In this document: piece by piece, positions 2,301 to 48,247 of the stretch
Position numbering within the stretch: position 1 is the first letter of the stretch
Layout of the letters: each line of letters opens with the position of its first letter
DNA from: Candidatus Omnitrophota bacterium
Lineage (GTDB): Bacteria > Omnitrophota > Gorgyraeia > Duberdicusellales > 4484-171
Assembly: GCA_028692655.1 (NCBI GenBank)
Contig: JAQUWY010000001.1
Span: 24,116-88,115, forward strand
Direction: 5' to 3'
Length of the DNA stretch: 64,000 nt
The notes under the pieces: generated by a model
Databases searched by the model: none
Told to the model about the DNA's origin: nothing
Seen by the model: only the letters and a program-made list of their open reading frames with translations
Made by a program: the position numbers and the translations under genes

Positions 2301-3617
2301 ATGAGTAGAAAACTGGTATTTTTTCTGGTTGTTTTTTTCTTTTGTTTTTCCGCGGCCGCTTTTGCGGCGGTTGAAAACATCAAGGTAAGCGGAGATATTG
2401 GCGAGCAATACTTTGCCCGCGGCCTTACTCTTGGCCAGAGCTATAACGGAAGTAATTCTCATCAGGGTGTATTCTCTCAAATCCGCTTAAGATTTGATGC
2501 TGACTTAACCGAAGGAGTAAGCGCGACTGTCAGGTTGCTTAATGAAAGGCTTTGGAATGCCGAAGATTCAAATGATGATAAAGAATCTTTAAATTTAGAT
2601 TTAGGTTATATTGAATTAAAAGAGTTTTTCTATCAACCCTTAACTTTAATTGTCGGCCGCCAGAATTTGCGTTACGGAAACGCTATGATTGTAGGTGACC
2701 CTGACACAAACCAGACCGCCGCCGGCGAAACCCCTTCGATTGTAAGTGATTTATCCTGGAAAAAGTCATTTGACTCTATCAGGGCAATCCTTGATTTTTC
2801 TCCCTACACAATTGATGTGATTTACGCCCGTTTAAAAGAAAACGAAACCGGATATCGTGATGAGCAGAATTTATACGGCGTTAACGTAGCCTATGACTGG
2901 GCTATGGGTAATGGCGCGGTAACCGAAGGCTATTTCTTCGGCACTGATAATTCTGATTCTACCGGCACCTGGACCGATAAAAAAGACAGAGTTTATGCCT
3001 TGGGTGCCAGAACCCTGTTTCATTTGAGTGAAAATTTTACCCTTGGCACAGAAGGCGCTTATCAGTTTGGCAGAAGAGCTGTTAGTGCTACCAGCCATCA
3101 GTCACGCCGGGCTTATGCCGGACAATTTATCAGTGAATATCGGTTCAACAATAAATATGATGCCAAGATTGGCATTGATTATTCTTTCTTCTCCGGAGAT
3201 AAGCCCAACAGCGACCGCTATGAAGCCTGGGACCCGATGTATGAAGACCAGACTCCAGCTGAGCTGATGAATGTTTTGCTTACCCAGAGTAACCGTCAAT
3301 TGATAGGCTTTACCGCTTCAATGGTTCCGGTTGAAGATGTAATTTTGAAAGTAAGGTATGCCCGCGGCTGGTGCGTAAAGGGATTTACTTCTTCTATTAT
3401 ACAAGTCGCCGCAGGGCCTGCCGCCGGAAACGTCTATTATGTAAACGTAGGAAAGAAGTTTCTGGGTGATGAAATCGATATCAGCGCCAATTATGATTAC
3501 ACCGAAGATATTAAATTCAGCCTTTCCGGAGCCTGCCTGCTTCCGGGGAAGGTCTTTACCGGTGAAAACAACCATCCTGCCTATTCAGTGAGAGGCGGAG
3601 TAGTGGTTAATTTCTAA
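2301..3617 (+). CDS. outer-membrane beta-barrel protein (porin-like), paralog B
   Basis: 438 aa, same length and architecture as 717..2033. Signal peptide AFA|AVEN. C-terminal ...VRGGVVVNF. Blocks of near-identical nucleotide sequence shared with paralog A. Confidence 0.6.
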   Translation: MSRKLVFFLVVFFFCFSAAAFAAVENIKVSGDIGEQYFARGLTLGQSYNGSNSHQGVFSQIRLRFDADLTEGVSATVRLLNERLWNAEDSNDDKESLNLDLGYIELKEFFYQPLTLIVGRQNLRYGNAMIVGDPDTNQTAAGETPSIVSDLSWKKSFDSIRAILDFSPYTIDVIYARLKENETGYRDEQNLYGVNVAYDWAMGNGAVTEGYFFGTDNSDSTGTWTDKKDRVYALGARTLFHLSENFTLGTEGAYQFGRRAVSATSHQSRRAYAGQFISEYRFNNKYDAKIGIDYSFFSGDKPNSDRYEAWDPMYEDQTPAELMNVLLTQSNRQLIGFTASMVPVEDVILKVRYARGWCVKGFTSSIIQVAAGPAAGNVYYVNVGKKFLGDEIDISANYDYTEDIKFSLSGACLLPGKVFTGENNHPAYSVRGGVVVNF

Positions 3618-3646
3618 AAGAATTTTGTAAAAATTTGCTTAGTTGC

Positions 3647-3683
3647 AACCCCGTACTTTTTAAGAAGTACGGGGTTTTATTTA
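3647..3683 (+). terminator. rho-independent terminator
   Basis: aaccccgtactt-tttaagaa-gtacggggtt stem-loop plus T tract after the stop of ORF 2301..3617. Confidence 0.7.
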
Positions 3684-4203
3684 ATATCTCCATAAAAATT
3701 CCTTTCTTTGATAGTTAAGGCGTACTATGTTACACTTATAGGTGCAATGAGAGCGTAGTTATGATATCCTTAAAGTCAACTGTAACCGTAGCGTAGGATT
3801 ATCGGAATTAAGAATTCCAAAAAAAGTTGACTATGCTTATCTGTGTATTGTAATAAACAGTTGTATAATAAATTATACAGGAGAAAATGCAGGAAAGGTT
3901 TTACTGTAGTACTGATGCCAATAGAGCTGTTCCCTGCTGAACTGTAGGCGATGACCAAACCACGACTGTAACAGCCAATTATATGATTATCTGTGTTAAA
4001 TAGCGGGGGATTAACTTAAGAGTTAATAATGTATTCATTTTTTATCGAAAGTAGCTACGTCTACACACAAAGTCTTTTAACGCTCCAAGCATTTTTAGGC
4101 AGATTGCTAATGCTGAATATTTAATTTGTAATATTAGATATTAGGGGTAAAAATGTTACTGATTTATTGAGTTAGTATAATTTAGGGCTTAAGCATAATT
4201 TTA

Positions 4204-4243
4204 TCTCCGCGTCAATTTTCTATTGGTGCGGAGGTTTTTATTT
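4204..4243 (+). terminator. rho-independent terminator closing an ORF-free ~0.5 kb stretch
   Basis: ctccgc...gcggag stem followed by gtttttattt. No ORF upstream of it between 3700 and 4200. Confidence 0.45.
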
Positions 4244-4312
4244 GGGGTGATTTTGGCCTTGCAAATTGTTATGGCATATGGTACAATTTTCTTGTAAAAG
4301 ATAGTAGGACAT

Positions 4313-5257
4313 ATGTCCTATATAGAATATAAGGGGTTTAGCCAGATTATGAAAAGATATCAACTAAGCGATAAGGAAAAGCTGGAAAAAGTATTGCTGG
4401 AAACGGGTATTTCCCGCTCTGAGCTTGCTCGGCGCTTGGAGGTGGATTATAAGACTGTTTATCGCTGGCTGGATAAAGAGGTTAAGCCTCACCCAGCCCA
4501 GGCTCAGGATATTGACCAGCTTTTTAAAGAATATGTTGACTTGAGGGAGATAGTGCTGCAATTGCAAAATAAACTAAAAAGCCCCATGCATATCTTAAAA
4601 GGCAATCAGGTTATCCGGGAAAAATTTCTTTTAGAGATGACTTATCACTCTAACGCCATTGAGGGAAGCCGGATGACCGTAAAAGAGACCCAGAGGGCTT
4701 TTGACGGCAAACAGGTACGGGGCAAGGAGATGTTTGAAGTATTAGAGGTAATAAACCATAAAAATGCACTACAGTTTTTATTAGAAAATATCCGGTCAGG
4801 CTTTAAAATTGATAGCAATTATATCTTTCAATTGCACAGAACAGTAATGTATAATTTTAATAATAAATTGCCCGGAAAATACAGAACCGGCCATGTCAAC
4901 TTGCTGAATACTGAAAAAGCGCTTCCATCCGCCCAGGAAGTTCCTTTGAGGATGGGTAAGTTAATCAAGAATATCAACAATTACGGTAAGGATGCGATAA
5001 GTAAGATTGCCCGCGACCATTATGAATTTGAAGCCATTCATCCTTTTTTTGACGGAAACGGCAGAGTAGGCAGGCTGATAATGATAACCCAGCTTTTAAT
5101 TAAAGGGTTTGCGCCGGCAATTGTCCAGGTTGAGGATAGGTATAAATATTATATGGCTTTGAGCAAGGCTGATTTTGGTAATTTTGAAAATATGGTGCAA
5201 GTGGTTTGTGATAGTATTGTGAAAGGCTATAGGTTGTTAACGGGCAGCATTAAATAG
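4313..5257 (+). CDS. Fic family protein (Fic/Doc AMPylation fold) with N-terminal HTH-like region
   Basis: Canonical Fic motif HPFFDGNGRVGR at residues ~240-251. sigma70-like promoter ttgcaa-17-tacaat at 4259-4287. Alternative start at 4349 has the better SD (aagggg). Confidence 0.8.
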   Translation: MSYIEYKGFSQIMKRYQLSDKEKLEKVLLETGISRSELARRLEVDYKTVYRWLDKEVKPHPAQAQDIDQLFKEYVDLREIVLQLQNKLKSPMHILKGNQVIREKFLLEMTYHSNAIEGSRMTVKETQRAFDGKQVRGKEMFEVLEVINHKNALQFLLENIRSGFKIDSNYIFQLHRTVMYNFNNKLPGKYRTGHVNLLNTEKALPSAQEVPLRMGKLIKNINNYGKDAISKIARDHYEFEAIHPFFDGNGRVGRLIMITQLLIKGFAPAIVQVEDRYKYYMALSKADFGNFENMVQVVCDSIVKGYRLLTGSIK

Positions 5258-5465
5258 GGACAGCGACCATTTTCTTAGAAATTCTAAGGTCTCTATTAAA
5301 TCTCTGCGCAATTATTGTTTTTTCTGCGTAACGAATCTTTATTTTGTTTTGTGTTTCTGTTAAGTAAACGGCTTAAGGAATGAGGCTTTAACGAAACAGA
5401 TTGACATATACGAAAAAGCTAATATAATGGATTTGTGTCCAAAATTTTAGAAAGTTGAGGAACCT

Positions 5466-6002
5466 ATGCTAAAAGAGGTATTTTATAGTACGAGTGCCCA
5501 AAAAGTCTTATGTTTCCTTTTGGCTAATCCTGAAAAGAGATTTTACGATAGGGAAGTCTCAAGGCTTACGAAAATAGGTCGAGCAGCCGGTAATTATTCG
5601 TTGCGTACTTTGATAGCGACAGGCATTGTTAAAAGGGAAAAAAGAGGCAGGATGTATTTTTACCATGTGAGCCTCGATGATCCAATTATAAGGCAGTTAA
5701 AAATAACTCAGAATCTCATCAACATTAAGCCATTAGCTGACAAATTAAGAGATATTTCTCTGAAGATAGTTCTTTATGGAAGCTCCGCAGGCGGGACTAA
5801 TCACGCAGAAAGCGATATAGATCTGTTTGTCCTTACCCGGGATGTTAAGAAGGTCAAGGATATCGTTTATAAGAGCTCTCTTAAGCAAAAGCTTCAGCAC
5901 GTAGTTACAACTCCACAGGACTTGATTAAACTAAAGAAAGATAATCCCGTATTCTATAAGGAAGTTTCCAGCGGGATAGTTCTCCACGAGGAGAAAAGAT
6001 GA
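5466..6002 (+). CDS. minimal nucleotidyltransferase (MNT) with N-terminal winged-helix, antitoxin-type
   Basis: NTase signature LYGSSAGG...ESDIDLFVL (GS...DxD). Stop overlaps the start of the downstream HEPN ORF (ATGA). Confidence 0.75.
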   Translation: MLKEVFYSTSAQKVLCFLLANPEKRFYDREVSRLTKIGRAAGNYSLRTLIATGIVKREKRGRMYFYHVSLDDPIIRQLKITQNLINIKPLADKLRDISLKIVLYGSSAGGTNHAESDIDLFVLTRDVKKVKDIVYKSSLKQKLQHVVTTPQDLIKLKKDNPVFYKEVSSGIVLHEEKR

Positions 6003-6430
6003 GCATTGAGTTCCAAAAGGCCATAGAGAAGAAACGGATATTACACTTTGCGCCAGGGAAAAATCAGGTTAAGAAAGAGCTTCTGGAGGCAGAAAACGAC
6101 TTATCCGAGGCGTTTAATAGGTTTGAGAGTGAAAAATACAAATACGCTACTATTACCGGCTACTATTCGATGTTTCATTCTGCCAGGGCCCTTATTTACT
6201 CAAAGGGATATCGTGAGAAAAGTCATTATTATCTGCTGGTTGCTTTAAACAGCCTTTTTGTAAACGCGGGGATCTTGTCTGAGGAGATAACCTCAGAATT
6301 TCATGATGCTATGGTTTTACGCGAGGATGCCGATTATCACGGCAATTTTACTAAAGAAGGCGCGGAAGCAGTGCTCAAAACAGCAAAGGAATTTTTGGCT
6401 ACTGCTAAGACTGTCTTAAAAACCAAATAA
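5999..6430 (+). CDS. HEPN domain protein (toxin-type partner of the MNT)
   Basis: 143 aa. R-x4-H HEPN motif in LREDADYHG. Translationally coupled to the upstream NTase, the classic HEPN/MNT arrangement. Confidence 0.7.
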   Translation: MSIEFQKAIEKKRILHFAPGKNQVKKELLEAENDLSEAFNRFESEKYKYATITGYYSMFHSARALIYSKGYREKSHYYLLVALNSLFVNAGILSEEITSEFHDAMVLREDADYHGNFTKEGAEAVLKTAKEFLATAKTVLKTK

Positions 6431-6601
6431 GATGAAAAGGGGGCAGATGTTAATGCTCAACAATTGGGTAATTCTTTTGATATGGTATAATGCCATAAAT
6501 TAAAGGAGAACCTAATGCAACACTCACAACAAATTATTGAAAAGAGTCTTCAGCTTGTTTGTGCGGTGTGCAAATTGTTTTAAACAGATAAGGAGGGTTA
6601 T

Positions 6602-6928
6602 ATGGAAGAAAAAAAATTCACTGAGGTAGAAATTAAGGAAGGTGCGCCTTTTGCGGCATTGTCTTATGTGTTTTTTTTGTGGATACTGACTTTTATTTTC
6701 AAAAAAGACAATGCCTTTGCTTTATATCATGCCCGCCAGGGGATAGTGATATTTATAGGAGATGTAATCTGTTTGACATTTATGTTTATACCGATTATAG
6801 GCGTTTTGTTTGGGCTGCTGGCATTAATTTTAGCGGTAGTCCGTGTGTATGGAATTCTACTCTCACTTACCGGCAAGAGCGACAAAATTTATGTAATTAG
6901 TGATTTGGCAGAAAAATTAGTTGTATGA
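6602..6928 (+). CDS. small integral membrane protein (DUF4870-like)
   Basis: 108 aa, two or three hydrophobic helices. Motif ALSYVFF...ALYHARQG typical of DUF4870-type proteins. SD aaggaggg upstream. Confidence 0.5.
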   Translation: MEEKKFTEVEIKEGAPFAALSYVFFLWILTFIFKKDNAFALYHARQGIVIFIGDVICLTFMFIPIIGVLFGLLALILAVVRVYGILLSLTGKSDKIYVISDLAEKLVV

Positions 6929-37500: not shown

Positions 37501-37805
37501 CTCCCCGGGTAGGGCTCGAACCTACGACCTATTGGTTACGATCTGACTCACATTACTGTGAGAGTCGGACTATCCCTTTACCATGACTGAACAACTTACC
37601 CCTTATTTTATTCGGGATAAAACTTCGCTTCGTTCAGTTTTAGGTAGCGAGTGTCTAGTCTCTGCACCTTCCCTTTTGGGGCTTGGCTCAGGATTGCCCT
37701 TCGCTTGAAGGGTTTCCCTGAATTTACTCGCTGTTTCAATCTCAATTTCTTGAGAAAGCTGCTAACCTTAACAGCCAACCGCTCTACCAATTGAGCTACC
37801 GGGGA
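37501..37805 (-). tRNA. tRNA-Asn (anticodon GUU) interrupted by a group I intron in the anticodon loop
   Basis: Minus-strand exons. 5' exon (37805..37771): TCCCCGG-TA-GCTC-AATTGGTA-GAGC-G-GTTGG-CTGT. 3' exon (37538..37501): TAA-CCAAT-AGGTC-GTAGG-TTCGAGC-CCTAC-CCGGGGA-G. Spliced product is a 73-nt cloverleaf with anticodon loop CUGUUAA. Confidence 0.7.
37539..37770 (-). ncRNA. group I self-splicing intron (cyanobacterial/plastid tRNA-intron-like), 232 nt
   Basis: Intron begins after exon U. Ends in omega-G (...GAGUCAGAUCG). Core AAAUUCAGGGAAACCCUUCAAGCGAAGGGCAAUCCUGAGCCAAGCC plus P7-like GCAGAGACUAGACACUCGC strongly resemble the tRNA-Leu(UAA)-type group I intron core (GGGCAAUCCUGAGCCAA). Confidence 0.7.
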
Positions 37806-40456: not shown

Positions 40457-41530
40457 AAAGGGACGGAGTTAACTTAATAACTTATGGACATAGTTAATAC
40501 TTTCTGTAAAATGATTATATGCCAAGAAACAAACGATTAAACGTTATTGGCGGTGTATATCATGTATTTACTCGGGGAATAGAGCGTAAAGAGATATTTA
40601 AAGATTCAACCGACCGTGAAGAATTCTTATCCCGCCTTGCTGATACGCTAGATAAAACAAAATCAACCTGTTATGCCTGGGCATTGATGCCTAATCATGT
40701 TCATATTATGCTTCGTCCTGGCAAGAGAACCTTAACTGATATAGCCCGAAGAATATTCACCGGCTATGCTGTATATTTCAACATCAGACATAAACGTAGA
40801 GGGTATCTTTACCAGAACCGATATAAATCAATTCTTTGCCAAGAGGACATATATTTTGAAGAACTTATAAGATATATCCACTTAAACCCTTTAAAAGCTA
40901 AAATAGTATCAACAATCAGCCAATTAGATAAATACCCTTGGACTGGTCATTTTACAATAATGAGTAGTAAAAATTGTCCTTGGCAGAATATAGATGAAGT
41001 ATTGCTTCGCTTTTCGAAGAAAAAGGGAAAAGCGGTAGCTGCCTACAGAGATTTTATAAAAGAAGGCGTAGGCAAAAAGTCTATGGTAGACTTTTTAGGT
41101 GGCGGATTGATAAGAAGTGCCGGCGGCTGGAGCGAACTTGCTGCCATGAGGCGTAAAAAAGATTATTGGCGGGGAGACGAGAGAATACTAGGGGGCGATT
41201 CATTTGTTAATCAGGTATTGAATGAATACGAGGAGAAAATGGATCAAAAAGATAAGCTAAGGAGAGCGGGCTGGGATTTAACTAAGGTAATCCATAAGGT
41301 ATGTTGCGAATTGGCCATAAGTGAGGAAGACATCTACAAAAAAGGCAGAAACAATATATACTCAGAAGCCAAAGCCTTGATTTGTTACCTTGCCAATAAA
41401 AAGCTCGGTATCAGCGGAGCCCAAATAGCCAAAAGGCTTAGAATATCTCAACCGGCGGTAGCCAAGTATATGATTAAAGAGATTGTGAGGGAGAGGGGAA
41501 ATAAGTTATTAAGTTAACTCCGTCCCCTCC
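40457..41530 (+). mobile_element. IS element with ~25-bp terminal inverted repeats carrying an IS200-like (HUH/Y1) transposase gene
   Basis: Left end aagggacggagttaacttaataactta (40457-40483). Right end taagttattaagttaactccgtccc (41503-41527), a perfect inverted copy. Single ORF between them. Confidence 0.6.
40519..41517 (+). CDS. IS200-like / REP-associated tyrosine (HUH) transposase with C-terminal DnaA-domain-IV-like HTH
   Basis: GVYHVFTRG. HUH motif NHVHIML. YLYQNRY catalytic Tyr region. C-terminal ...AKALICYLANKKLGISGAQIAKRLRISQPAV resembles a DnaA C-terminal HTH. Confidence 0.7.
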   Translation: MPRNKRLNVIGGVYHVFTRGIERKEIFKDSTDREEFLSRLADTLDKTKSTCYAWALMPNHVHIMLRPGKRTLTDIARRIFTGYAVYFNIRHKRRGYLYQNRYKSILCQEDIYFEELIRYIHLNPLKAKIVSTISQLDKYPWTGHFTIMSSKNCPWQNIDEVLLRFSKKKGKAVAAYRDFIKEGVGKKSMVDFLGGGLIRSAGGWSELAAMRRKKDYWRGDERILGGDSFVNQVLNEYEEKMDQKDKLRRAGWDLTKVIHKVCCELAISEEDIYKKGRNNIYSEAKALICYLANKKLGISGAQIAKRLRISQPAVAKYMIKEIVRERGNKLLS

Positions 41531-44154: not shown

Positions 44155-44240
44155 TTCCTTGACAGAATTTCCGATCAGAGCTATATTAAAAGTAACAATT
44201 AGGCAAAAGTCCCGAGTTAGAGGATTAAATCCCGGACTTA

Positions 44241-44288
44241 AAAAAAGTAAAACCTTCACTGGAAACGGTGAGGGATTTTTTATTTTAT
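44241..44288 (+). terminator. intrinsic terminator, copy 1 of a 44-bp duplicated sequence
   Basis: aaaaaagtaaaaccttcactggaaacggtgagggattttttatttta. Repeated at 44893-44942. Confidence 0.55.
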
Positions 44289-44904
44289 GGAAATGAAACA
44301 AAAATATTGGTTATTTAATGTTTTGTTTTTATTGTTTTTTGCTAACGCAATAGCATCGGAAGTTAATCCTTCGGCAAAGCCTAAGATTTATGTTAGTACG
44401 CATAGAGGGATAGATTATTATCATATGAAATATACACTGACTCCCGATAATGTAGAATTAACCTTGCCTACTTATCATAAATATGGACCTAGCGAATATT
44501 TCTTTGAATATGGAAACTTTCAACTATTTATTCCCAAGGAAAAATTTCCCATCTCAGCGCCTAATTGCAACACGCATATTATTTTACGTATGCCTATGAC
44601 AATGGGCGATGTTTTTGCGAAAAGGTATTACACTTCTGAACAAGAGCGCTATATTGCAGAGAAAAGAGCTGTTTACGACAAAATTAAACAAATAAAGGAA
44701 TCAGGCAGGGGCGAGTTAGAGGTAGTGGTTGAGTTAAACCCGTATGTGAAAGTAAAGCAAGAGGAGCCGTTAGAGGTTGAATTAGAGTGGTGCAATGTTT
44801 TTTTCAGAGATGCTTATGGTCAATATATTGATTATGTGGGTCCGTTAAAATGGACAATTCCGCGGATAAATAAAAAGTTGTTTAAACGTCTTGAGAAAAA
44901 GTAA
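44287..44904 (+). CDS. hypothetical secreted protein
   Basis: 205 aa with signal peptide ending ANAIA|SE. Bounded on both sides by the duplicated terminator sequence. Confidence 0.4.
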   Translation: MEMKQKYWLFNVLFLLFFANAIASEVNPSAKPKIYVSTHRGIDYYHMKYTLTPDNVELTLPTYHKYGPSEYFFEYGNFQLFIPKEKFPISAPNCNTHIILRMPMTMGDVFAKRYYTSEQERYIAEKRAVYDKIKQIKESGRGELEVVVELNPYVKVKQEEPLEVELEWCNVFFRDAYGQYIDYVGPLKWTIPRINKKLFKRLEKK

Positions 44905-44942
44905 AACCTTCACTGGAAATGGTGAGGGATTTTTATTTTAAG
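44893..44942 (+). terminator. intrinsic terminator, copy 2 of the 44-bp duplicated sequence
   Basis: aaaaagtaaaaccttcactggaaatggtgagggatttttatttta. Its stop codon taa is embedded in the repeat. Confidence 0.55.
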
Positions 44943-45166: not shown

Positions 45167-45423
45167 TAAAGTTATTATAAAAAATAAGTACGTTTGTTTA
45201 CAGCAGGGTTTACACATATTCAGTTGCTAAAAAAGCGTGGTTGCCGGAGGAAAGATTTTATATATTGACACTGGATTTCAGTACATTAAGATAATCATAA
45301 TGCTTTGGGCAAGGAAGAGGAATCTATGCGTAAAAATAAGCAAAACCTTTGCAAAACAAGCGAAGGTTTTTGTATTTTTATAGGGGTAGTGAAAAAGTGA
45401 AAAATTTGGTATAATAACAACAT

Positions 45424-46713
45424 ATGAAAACGATGCATAAAATTATCATTGGTGATTCGCGAAAGATGAAGGAGCTTTCTGATGAAAGCATCCATATAGT
45501 TGTAACTTCTCCGCCATATTGGCAACTGAAAGATTACGGAGTTAAAGATCAAATAGGATTTAATGATAGTTATGAGAGCTACATCAATAACCTTAATTTA
45601 GTCTGGAAAGAATGCCATAGGGTTTTACATAAAGGTTGTCGTTTATGCGTCAACATTGGAGATCAATTCGCACGTTCAGTTTACTATGGAAGATATAAGA
45701 TTATTCCTATCCGAACGGAGATTATTAGGTTTTGCGAAACGATCGGGTTTGATTATATGGGCGCTATAATCTGGCAAAAAGTAACTACCTGCAATACTAC
45801 AGGTGGTGCGACAATAATGGGTTCATTTCCTTACCCCCGGAATGGGATTTTAAAGTTAGATTACGAATTTATTCTGTTATTTAAAAAACCAGGCATTTCT
45901 CCACGACCATTTAGAGAGATTAGAGAACGCTCAAAGATGACAACTGAGGAATGGAATAAGTATTTTGCTGGACATTGGCAATTTACCGGAGAAAGACAGA
46001 ATAAGCATTTGGCAATGTTTCCGGAGGAATTACCTAAACGTCTTTTAAGAATGTTTACTTTTGTCGGCGATACGGTATTAGACCCTTTCCTAGGGAGCGG
46101 TACGACTTCTTTGGCAGCAAGGAATTTAGAAAGAAACTCTGTCGGATACGAGATAAATAAAGATTTTTTGTCTGTTATAAAATCAAAACTCGGAATGAAG
46201 CAGCACAATTTTTTTCATACGCATAATTTCGAAGTTATACAACAAGAAAAAATAGCGAATAATTTAACCGAGGAAATTAATAAATTGCCTTATGTTTTTA
46301 AGGATCCAATAAAATTTGATAAAAAAGTTGATCCTAGAAAGTTGCAGTTTGGTTCAAGAATCGATAAAAATAGTGGGGAGCGACACCAATCCTTTGTTGT
46401 AAAGGAAGTTATTAGCCCCGAATTACTAAAACTCAACAATGGTCTTACTATACGACTTCTAGGCATCAAGCAGAACCTTGACAAAAATGGAAAAGCTACT
46501 CAGTTTTTGAGCGATAAGGTTAAGGGAACAAGAGTTTTTCTTAAATACGATAAAGCAAAACATGATGAAAAAAATAACCTGCTTTGTTACCTTTATTTAC
46601 AAAATAAGACTTTTGTGAATGCACATCTAGTAAAAAATAACCTAGTGGACGTTGATGCAGCAACGGATTATAGATATAAGACAAAATTTTTATCTTTGGC
46701 AGGAGCTAAATAA
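45424..46713 (+). CDS. DNA methyltransferase, beta-class amino-MTase (N4-C or N6-A)
   Basis: Motif IV SPPYW precedes motif I DPFLGSGTT, the beta-class permutation. About 150-aa C-terminal extension. Confidence 0.8.
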   Translation: MKTMHKIIIGDSRKMKELSDESIHIVVTSPPYWQLKDYGVKDQIGFNDSYESYINNLNLVWKECHRVLHKGCRLCVNIGDQFARSVYYGRYKIIPIRTEIIRFCETIGFDYMGAIIWQKVTTCNTTGGATIMGSFPYPRNGILKLDYEFILLFKKPGISPRPFREIRERSKMTTEEWNKYFAGHWQFTGERQNKHLAMFPEELPKRLLRMFTFVGDTVLDPFLGSGTTSLAARNLERNSVGYEINKDFLSVIKSKLGMKQHNFFHTHNFEVIQQEKIANNLTEEINKLPYVFKDPIKFDKKVDPRKLQFGSRIDKNSGERHQSFVVKEVISPELLKLNNGLTIRLLGIKQNLDKNGKATQFLSDKVKGTRVFLKYDKAKHDEKNNLLCYLYLQNKTFVNAHLVKNNLVDVDAATDYRYKTKFLSLAGAK

Positions 46714-47345
46714 TGGCAAAAGAATGGATATTAAATCAGGCAAATATGCGATGGGGGTTAACTAGAAAGAGTAAAGTTGGTCCTGTTGCAGAACTAATAA
46801 GGAAATGTTCACCCAAGACATTAAAAGAATGGGAAGAGTTTTATTTGCATAAAGCTTATTCAAAGCAACACCTTGAACAGCTCGGGAAAATATTGTTCAT
46901 TAAGGTAACTGATATTTGCAAGGCAGAAATAGAAGATATTACCGAAGAAGATTGCATAGGATTTGTATATAATTTGGTAATTAACAGAACCTTTGATGGA
47001 TATCAGTCAGAAATTCAAACAATATATGGCCAACTTGAAAAGATTCTTGGGGTAAAAATTGAATCCGCTCCTGACGAATGGGATAGAGGCTATAACGTTG
47101 ATTATTTCATTCGAATTGATGGTAAACATATCGGTCTTCAAATAAAACCCGCAGGTTATGAGTATATAACGCAAATAATTAATGAGAGAGAGCAGCAGAA
47201 GAAAACTCACGAAAAATTTTCAGCAAAGTATGGAGGTAAAGTGTTCTATATTATTTCAATAACTGAAGGTAAAAATAAGTTAATTCATAATCCCGAAGTA
47301 ATCGAGGAAATAAAAAAAGAGATCGAAAGGCTAAAAAGAGTATAA
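46713..47345 (+). CDS. hypothetical protein, candidate cognate restriction endonuclease
   Basis: Translationally coupled (ATGA) to the MTase. VDYFIRIDGKHIGLQIK could be a PD-(D/E)xK-like core. Assignment by position only. Confidence 0.3.
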   Translation: MAKEWILNQANMRWGLTRKSKVGPVAELIRKCSPKTLKEWEEFYLHKAYSKQHLEQLGKILFIKVTDICKAEIEDITEEDCIGFVYNLVINRTFDGYQSEIQTIYGQLEKILGVKIESAPDEWDRGYNVDYFIRIDGKHIGLQIKPAGYEYITQIINEREQQKKTHEKFSAKYGGKVFYIISITEGKNKLIHNPEVIEEIKKEIERLKRV

Positions 47346-47707
47346 AGATCAGTGATAAAAAGGGGAATTTCTACCCCGAAATTCTTCGGGCTGGGTGGGT
47401 ATTTAGTGTTCCACTCACTTGCAGGTTCGGAGTCCCGAACCAGAATAGATTCGGTTCGGGGTAAACTCCGGTAGGCCCGAGCAGAGCGAAGCCTTCTTTT
47501 AGGGGTTGAGACTGCAACAAGCAACCACGATGTATATGCACCCCACCAGAGACGCCAACAGGCTACCACGATGAGGCTGGCCCTTGGCCGTTTCTTAAAC
47601 AACAAAGATGAACTCCAGCCATTTTTCACATTTCGAACTATTCTGCCGTCCATTTCTAAGAGGATTTTCTCCCTTCACGAATTTGCCAATAATGATATAC
47701 TTAAAAT

Positions 47708-48247
47708 ATGCAAAACATAAAAGCCGGTGACATTATTCTTTTTAAGCCCGGGGGAGATTTGCTTTCAAGGATTATTGCCTGGGGCACAAAAAGCGCCTAT
47801 TCTCATGTTGCTGTTTGTGTATCGGCAGAAATGAACCTGGCCATTGAGGCAAACACAAGAGGCGGAGTGAGAGCAATTGACTTACGCAAAATTAAACGCA
47901 GGATAGATATTTACCGCATCAAAAACGAGCATCAATTCCGGCTGGATGGAGTAATTTCTTTTTTAGTTGAGCAGTTAAATAACAAGTATGACTTTTTAGG
48001 CGTAATATACTTAGCAATTTTAAAGAGTTTAGCTATTGTTTTACGCAGGCCCCTTAAAAATGCCGCCAATAGATGGCAGAAAGGCAAAGACTATTTTTGC
48101 TCAGAGCTCTGCTATGAAGCTTTTTTAAAGGGCGGCGATTTAGATATCGTACCGCAAAGCGATAAAGCGGATGTAACTTCTCCCGGTGATATTGCCAAAA
48201 GCCCGATTGTCGAATTAGTGGAGCAAAAAAGAACTTTCTACAATTAG
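47708..48247 (+). CDS. permuted papain-fold hydrolase-like protein (YiiX/DUF830-like)
   Basis: GDIILF near the N-terminus. SHVAVCV. FCSELCYEAF. Order and spacing are typical of permuted NlpC/P60-like amidases. Confidence 0.4.
   Translation: MQNIKAGDIILFKPGGDLLSRIIAWGTKSAYSHVAVCVSAEMNLAIEANTRGGVRAIDLRKIKRRIDIYRIKNEHQFRLDGVISFLVEQLNNKYDFLGVIYLAILKSLAIVLRRPLKNAANRWQKGKDYFCSELCYEAFLKGGDLDIVPQSDKADVTSPGDIAKSPIVELVEQKRTFYN

Follow-up and report, generated by a model that had tools for sequence, protein, structure and literature searches.

What is a conspicuously GC-rich, gene-free block doing between two genes of an Omnitrophota chromosome, and is it an RNA gene? The DNA analysed here (the window) is a 64-kb chromosome segment of Candidatus Omnitrophota with a mean GC content of 0.388. 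Its proteins carry accessions (MDD3295795–MDD3295799) of a Candidatus Omnitrophota metagenome-assembled genome (MAG), and its genes, including dnaX, a PhoH-like gene and a DEAD-box helicase gene, lie nearly all on the + strand. In the intergenic region at 47346–47707, an earlier reading of the letters (the original prediction) had proposed a hairpin-dense candidate structured RNA, which might be an unclassified noncoding RNA (ncRNA), a riboswitch or leader for the gene at 47708, or a decayed foreign gene fragment. We found that the GC-rich block proper is a 298-nt orphan segment at approximately 47360–47657 (51% GC overall, 56% at its peak; no strand is assigned to it) that was present in none of the relatives examined. 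It occupies the exact interval between a mobile MjaI-type restriction–modification (RM) cassette and the resident promoter region of a YiiX/C92-like hydrolase gene. On comparative sequence grounds, the block is most likely lineage-specific non-coding DNA, and not a conserved gene or a demonstrated RNA gene.

Composition and boundaries of the block

The GC enrichment that had drawn attention to the locus was borne out by measurement. The GC maxima of the entire window, for both 200-nt (0.56, starting at 47384) and 250-nt intervals (0.536, starting at 47371), fell inside the block, and the intergenic region 47346–47707 ranked first (0.47, with the runner-up at 0.41) among the 25 intergenic regions that measure 120 nt or more. 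The GC content of the block (0.51; peak, 0.56) is well above that of the RM cassette (0.34) and of the genome (0.39), which argues against a native intergenic sequence. The description of the genome as AT-rich was slightly overstated, the window having 39% GC.

The left edge of the block is set by the RM cassette (45403–47359, + strand), which encodes an N4/N6 DNA methylase (45424–46713; Pfam match N6_N4_Mtase, 3.9e-43) and an MjaI endonuclease (46713–47345; RE_MjaI, 5.6e-45). In the closest copy of the cassette, at locus L007 (96% amino acid (aa) and 85% DNA identity), positions 4692–6647 align to window positions 45403–47359, and the alignment stops at 47359, 14 nt past the endonuclease stop codon. 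MjaI endonucleases with 75–96% identity span Omnitrophota, candidate phyla radiation (CPR) bacteria, Ignavibacteria and several lineages of archaea. The cassette is thus mobile and highly promiscuous, and it is present with sharp boundaries in many unrelated genomes and contexts. The block was not found downstream of the cassette at ten other MjaI loci (72–85% DNA identity where aligned; endonuclease, 87–96% aa identity), and at L007–L009 and L011–L016 the sequence 3′ of the endonuclease gene is unrelated to it. Because cassette homology ends at 47359 and the ten other cassette loci lack the block, we ruled out that it is an integral part of the cassette.

The right edge is defined by comparison with the closest relative, L002, another Omnitrophota MAG, in which the C92 protein is 91% identical and the adjoining DNA approximately 90% identical. 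DNA homology to L002 begins at about 47658–47676, and only the proximal ~50 nt of the upstream sequence are kept. The resident upstream region of the C92 gene (47658–47707, + strand; ATG at 47708), conserved with L002 3418–3465, therefore lies outside the block. Since homology to L007 ends at 47359 and homology to L002 starts at ~47658, the unique segment is about 47360–47657. The block originally delimited at 47346–47700 is thus real, but the element is shorter: positions 47346–47359 belong to the RM cassette, and ~47658–47707 to the C92 promoter region.

A promoter scan placed a promoter-like site, TTCACG-16-TGaTATACT (consensus match), at 47674–47701, downstream of the block. Its extended −10 element ends at 47701, 7 nt before the ATG, which leaves the C92 gene with essentially no 5′ untranslated region (UTR). 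No block was found upstream of the C92 orthologues at the five loci L002–L006, four of which are more distant than L002. The block is part of neither the cassette nor the downstream gene, and cannot be the C92 leader. The proposal of a riboswitch or leader for 47708 was thereby refuted, given that L002 retains only the last ~50 nt, that four further orthologues are without the block and that the promoter-like site lies 3′ of it. The C92/YiiX-like gene itself appears to be leaderless or nearly so, and this arrangement is conserved in L002.

The cassette showed a further feature in its closest copy. Directly 5′ of the methylase gene, L007 carries a complete group II intron (2811–4691), marked by RF02001 (2896–3067), a reverse transcriptase (3187–4578) and RF00029 (4590–4667). 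The intron is preceded by a terminator-like repeat that recurs at L007 6822–6890 and at 45329–45404 of the window. These repeats beside the cassette suggest that it tends to land next to terminator modules. A group II intron remnant was also considered as the identity of the block and rejected, because the block is unlike the L007 intron and has no Rfam intron match.

Hairpins, repeated boxes and the 3′ end

The perfect hairpins of the original prediction, CCCGAA-ATTC-TTCGGG (47375–47390) and GGTTCGG-AGTC-CCGAACC (47424–47441), are present, and their density is above chance. The interval 47365–47460 holds four different stems, each perfect over 6 bp or more (six registers in all), compared with 0.75 expected, a number reached by 0 of 500 dinucleotide shuffles. 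Folding against shuffles gave z-scores of −3.1 (+ strand) and −4.1 (− strand) for 47360–47475, and of −0.7 (+) and +1.3 (−) for 47476–47600, so that the fold excess is limited to the 5′ third. The longer stretch 47360–47600 scored −2.5, and the folding of the whole intergenic region was not significant (−1.5 on the + strand, −0.3 on the − strand). The − strand value of −4.1 implies that the hairpins are mostly perfect DNA palindromes, which indicate no strand.

Within each of two sets of hairpins in this 5′ part, the two members exclude one another and share an arm. Hairpin enumeration on the + strand yielded the first pair at 47365–47390, where either GAATTTC/GAAATTC (47365–47371/47378–47384) or CCCGAA/TTCGGG (47375–47380/47385–47390) can form. 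The second, switch-like set (47424–47471, + strand) offers GGTTCGG/CCGAACC (47424–47430/47435–47441) or CCCGAACC/GGTTCGGG (47434–47441/47453–47460), the latter extending into a long CGGAGU...ACUCCG hairpin. Long-range complementarity over 9 bp between TACCCCGAA (47372–47380) and TTCGGGGTA (47455–47463) would also permit a three-way-junction fold; when forced, this fold reached −40.4 kcal/mol, compared with −45.2 kcal/mol for the minimum free energy (MFE) fold, a penalty of about 5 kcal/mol. Between the two sets lies an 8-bp hairpin with two G–U pairs, UGGGUGGG/UCCACUCA (47391–47418, + strand), which appears in both the MFE and the centroid folds of the + strand. This hairpin is stable only as + strand RNA, because its G–U pairs turn into A–C mismatches on the − strand; the − strand fold, weakened in this way, retains only a 4-bp core and flanking pairs.

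In the 3′ part, the duplication of ACCACGATG held up and proved to be part of a longer repeat. Its copies at 47524 and 47565 are the only two in the window (0.10 expected), and they belong to a 25-nt direct repeat, whose copies GAGACTGCAACAAGCAACCACGATG (47508–47532, + strand) and GAGACGCCAACAGGCTACCACGATG (47549–47573, + strand) are identical at 21 of 25 positions and are spaced 41 nt apart; zero such repeats are expected by chance. Even when three mismatches were allowed, the box matched the 64-kb window at just two places, with zero expected. The 16 nt 3′ of each copy agree at only 5 of 16 positions. A box that is kept while its flanks differ has either been selectively retained or been copied separately. 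The other segments that had been singled out, GGGGTAAACTCC (47457–47468) and TGCAACAAGCAACCACGATG (47513–47532), are likewise present.

Following the second box, the terminator scan found a weak terminator-like hairpin, GGCTGGCC-CTT-GGCC, followed by GTTTCTT (47575–47597, + strand), which the MFE fold incorporates into a longer stem. This site (47575–47590) was the sole + strand terminator-like site from the endonuclease stop codon to the next promoter. At the 5′ edge of the block, the promoter scan returned no sigma-70-like site; the organism does use canonical promoters, as illustrated by TTGACA-17-TATATT at 44159–44187. With no sigma-70-like promoter before the block and no strong terminator after the endonuclease gene, the block, if transcribed, would constitute the 3′ tail of the RM mRNA. 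Its GC-rich stem-loops, lying on the coding strand after a stop codon and ending in a hairpin with a U-rich tract before the next promoter, resemble intrinsic terminators and structured 3′ UTRs. The bona fide terminators of the window (44242–44285, 44896–44939 and 45335–45378), in contrast, each consist of one compact hairpin and a clean U run, whereas the block extends over ~240 nt, has at least five stems and has a poor U tract.

These three terminator hairpins deserve mention in their own right. They are near-identical (AAAACCTTCACTGGAAACGGTGAGGGATTTTTT and variants), two of the copies being 93% identical, and are reused after successive genes. The first is included in a conserved non-coding module common to three Omnitrophota MAGs (window 44159–44285, L006 3385–3530 and L007 6698–6960). 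The module consists of the TTGACA-17-TATATT promoter, a conserved stretch (CAGGCAAAGTCCCGAGTTAGA..), a hairpin with a U run, a ribosome-binding site and a gene of unknown function. Its stem changes compensatorily between the genomes (CCTTCACTG/CGGTGAGGG, CCTTCGTAG/GACGAAGG and CCTTCGCAA/GCGAAGG), and Rfam scans of the window and L007 gave no match at the gathering score. We regard the module as a candidate leader, attenuator or small RNA, with better comparative support than the GC-rich block.

Coding potential, known RNA families and possible relatives

The absence of a credible open reading frame (ORF) was upheld, and every forward frame of the block is broken by several stops. The antisense ORF at 47285–47653 (− strand; L001 2578–2946) exists as described, encodes 122 aa, overlaps the end of the endonuclease gene and has been called as a gene in a public metagenome. 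In searches against 5.8e9 clustered proteins and 1.84e9 representatives it returned a self-match, in a protein cluster of one member, and no homologue; the one other match, P0122, consists of a 37-aa unit in perfect tandem repetition, and its eight identical repeats inflate the E-value. This ORF is almost certainly a false gene prediction. The five stop-free frame pieces of the block gave no match in Pfam, NCBIfam or PHROGs. Of the idea of a decayed foreign gene fragment, the orphan status stands, but the five stop-free segments show no protein similarity.

Known RNA families were equally absent. A scan of the whole window with Rfam 15 at gathering thresholds gave nothing in the block; outside it, the scan returned a group I intron and two tRNAs. 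At the permissive threshold of E ≤ 10, sub-windows of 701 and 261 nt gave only two sub-threshold chance matches, one to a frameshift element of viruses and one to a long noncoding RNA of the mouse. The covariance search thus matched no family at either level. ARAGORN called neither a tRNA nor a transfer-messenger RNA (tmRNA) in the block and only two tRNA-Ser genes in the window; there was no Rfam tmRNA match, and no frame ends in a tag-like peptide. The covariance models of RNase P RNA types A and B gave no match at gathering thresholds or at E ≤ 10 with the 701-nt and 261-nt queries, and neither strand of P4, CR-I GGAAAGUCC or CR-V ACAGAA..GGCUUA, was found in the block sequence. There was no Rfam match to signal recognition particle (SRP) RNA or 6S RNA, bearing in mind that divergent 6S RNAs can escape Rfam; the predicted folds of the block are multi-branched, unlike the 6S rod. 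The earlier judgement by eye that the block is not RNase P RNA, tmRNA or SRP RNA thus agreed with the Rfam and ARAGORN results.

The resemblance to RNase P RNA was traced to short segments. GGTAAACTCC is identical to positions 228–238 of Escherichia coli rnpB, and GCAACA..AGCAA.CC, read by eye, resembles CR-II. Direct alignment to E. coli rnpB yielded a single 10-mer, equalled by 75 of 300 shuffles, and the look-alikes of CR-III and CR-II occur in reverse order, which no circular permutation produces. The look-alikes are therefore isolated and in the wrong order, as had been noted, and the similarity is at chance level. Compared with bacterial RNase P RNA type A (RF00010), the block shares the 10-nt identity with CR-III, a loose resemblance to CR-II and a similar GC content and length, but differs in having no covariance-model match, no P4 and misordered motifs.

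The group I intron detected by Rfam revealed a gene of separate interest. At 37501–37805 (− strand), a tRNA-Asn(GUU) gene is split in its anticodon loop by the intron (Rfam match at 37546–37780, 82.7 bits). The order is UCCCCGG..GUUGG-CUGU, intron, UAA-CCAAU..GGUUCGAGCC..CCGGGGA-G, followed by a clean terminator. This gene, missed by ARAGORN, is the only clear − strand gene of the window. To our knowledge, tRNA-Asn is outside the classic bacterial cases of tRNA genes with group I introns (Leu-UAA, fMet, Arg-CCU and Ile-CAU).

Nucleotide searches for relatives of the block were also negative. With blastn in its distant setting, the block matched nothing in phages, plasmids or E. coli genomes, and with nhmmer and blastn it matched none of the 18 fetched loci, L001, the same genome's own contig, being set aside. 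The large collections were queried by exact patterns, which cannot reach distant RNA homologues. In such scans the consensus of the 25-nt box had no match in the viral or metagenome collections, and an 18-mer hairpin and two further patterns had none in the viral collection. The three-arm pattern matched the metagenome collection twice, on one repeat-rich contig without real ORFs or flank similarity, and GGGGTAAACTCCGGTAGG matched the viral collection twice, both matches being to one coding region of a single phage, where the identity did not extend past the 18-mer. The numbers of these metagenome and viral matches fit chance expectation, and the matches are due to chance. A full-text literature search found no paper on noncoding RNA in Omnitrophota.

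Recurrence of the block as a mobile element was considered in the same context. An imperfect direct repeat brackets it, AAGGGGAATTTCTACCCCGAAATT at 47359–47382 and AAGAGGATTTTCTCCCTTCACGAATTT at 47657–47683, and in two shuffle tests was equalled 2 times in 500 and 6 times in 1000. No second copy of the block was found in the 64-kb window, in ~100 kb of other Omnitrophota loci or in the scanned collections. An IS200-like Y1 transposase, fused to a DnaA-C-type helix-turn-helix domain, is encoded 6 kb upstream at 40519–41517, in an element (40460–41526) flanked by perfect 26-bp inverted repeats (GGGACGGAGTTAACTTAATAACTTAT at 40460–40485 and its complement at 41501–41526). A relationship to repetitive extragenic palindromes and their associated transposases (REP/RAYT) was rejected, because the repeats flanking this transposase gene are unrelated to the block and the motifs of the block occur nowhere else.

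Origin and possible roles of the block

Considering its position, we tentatively favour, with slightly less than even confidence, a reading of the block as orphan DNA at a junction, foreign or of unknown origin, left between the mobile RM cassette and the resident C92 promoter. RM systems reportedly behave as mobile elements that insert with associated rearrangements, as described by Kobayashi, Furuta and colleagues. The block resembles the junction DNA of such units in that it begins at the very base where cassette homology ends; it differs in that no donor was found, no long target duplication surrounds the cassette and the block is more palindrome-rich than generic flanks. It probably came in with the rearrangement that placed the cassette, either as flanking DNA from a GC-richer donor or as filler. 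If transcribed, it would form the 3′ tail of the methylase–endonuclease mRNA, in which the GC-rich stems and the terminal hairpin with its U-rich tract (47575–47597) could stop or slow read-through, the stems could protect the mRNA 3′ end from 3′ exonucleases, and the hairpins could insulate the downstream C92 promoter. Several observations weigh against this interpretation. As no donor sequence was found, a foreign origin would be deduced only from the GC content and the absence in relatives, and that absence is weaker evidence than it sounds, since sampling of the lineage is sparse (among 5.8e9 proteins, the nearest C92 relative has 89% identity). The strong hairpin excess, with its two exclusive pairs and long-range complement, looks designed, not random; the hairpin at 47391–47418 needs G–U pairs and exists only in + strand RNA; and the two retained box copies with differing flanks suggest, from the sequence, selection on the box. 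The terminal hairpin, with 5–6 bp and an interrupted U tract, is weak as a terminator.

An alternative is a gene in its own right for a structured small RNA, specific to the lineage and located on the + strand at ~47362–47597 (~235 nt). Its 5′ domain would be able to adopt either of the alternative hairpins or a three-way junction, and its 3′ domain would expose two single-stranded 25-nt boxes (a putative protein- or RNA-binding site) and end in a hairpin and U tract. The block is the top GC outlier among the intergenic regions, a signature by which structured RNAs are sought in low-GC genomes (PMC6429828), and the folding scores of the 5′ domain and of 47360–47600, the strand-exclusive G–U hairpin, the duplicated box with divergent flanks and the terminator-like 3′ end point in the same direction. 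Such a gene is nevertheless unlikely, if a serious candidate: no homologue was found by any route, hence covariation support is zero, no Rfam family matched, the block is absent at this locus in L002, no promoter-like site precedes it, its 3′ half folds no better than shuffles, and the − strand of its 5′ domain scores even better than the + strand. More specifically, the block could be a young, lineage-restricted regulatory RNA of ~235 nt with a toggling 5′ domain and the two 3′ boxes as binding sites, perhaps acquired with the RM cassette and acting on it, for example on read-through or mRNA stability during establishment in a new host; this version we consider improbable. Doubtful to a similar or slightly greater degree is insertion into the C92 upstream region of a small non-autonomous element, similar to a miniature inverted-repeat transposable element (MITE), with duplication of a ~25-bp target. 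The bracketing repeat, rarely matched by shuffles, and the orthology of its right copy to L002 sequence, from which the block is precisely missing, speak for such an event. Against it, the block had no second copy in the DNA scanned and is without terminal inverted repeats, the left repeat copy aligns weakly to post-cassette L007 sequence and may belong to the cassette flank, and the ~78% identity of the repeat is marginal given the number of comparisons. A decayed, frameshifted coding remnant, whether foreign or a former upstream neighbour truncated by insertion of the RM cassette, would fit the orphan status and atypical GC content, and a short open frame ending with TGA at 47569–47571, just before the terminal hairpin, has the usual layout of a gene end. 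We hold it to be very improbable in view of the interrupted forward frames, the null searches with the stop-free pieces, the lack of homologues of the 122-aa frame that spans the block (the only frame run on the large collections), and the run of perfect palindromes, which is not expected in coding sequence. Two further accounts have hardly any probability. A leader or riboswitch that regulates the C92 gene in cis has in its favour a position directly upstream on the same strand and two sets of arm-sharing exclusive hairpins reminiscent of riboswitch or attenuator expression platforms; the block differs from these in having no conserved aptamer, no controlled downstream gene and no U run after the alternative hairpins, orthologous loci, including that of L002, lack it, and the conserved promoter-like site beyond it leaves the gene virtually without a 5′ UTR. 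A housekeeping RNA (RNase P RNA, tmRNA, SRP RNA or 6S RNA) in divergent, rearranged or fragmentary form would have a comparable size and GC content and could explain the rnpB look-alikes GGTAAACTCC and the CR-II-like stretch, but the family searches down to the 261-nt query, the chance-level rnpB alignment, the missing P4 strands, the impossible motif order, the lack of a tag-ending frame and the branched folds all oppose it, and, unless the gene had relocated, a relative whose DNA is 90% identical should still have it here.

The base rate in systematic surveys of long, GC-rich intergenic regions (GC-IGRs) of unknown nature favours the orphan reading. In one such survey, about 20% became good ncRNA candidates and about a quarter were rare or unclassifiable (Stav et al. 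2019, BMC Microbiol 19:66, PMC6429828); in Thermovirga lienii, 31 of 78 candidates had no homologue at all (PMC6429828). The block is like the GC-IGRs filed there as "Unnamed: insufficient evidence to classify" (PMC6429828) in being long and far above the genome in GC content, with no ORF, known RNA or homologue. That category is a holding class without a mechanism, whereas the context of the block, with a mobile RM cassette directly on one side and a resident promoter on the other, is informative. The heuristic behind the original prediction was sound, but the block falls in the unclassifiable class.

As it stands, the block matters little, being another homologue-less GC-rich intergenic region of the kind that surveys leave unnamed. 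The useful outcome is a negative one, namely that its annotation as RNase P RNA, tmRNA, SRP RNA, a C92 riboswitch or a protein should be avoided. If it were a discrete RNA, it would represent a newly arisen or acquired structured RNA in the little-studied phylum Omnitrophota, linked to a promiscuous RM cassette, and would be of modest interest for the insulation or regulation of mobile defence genes after their transfer.

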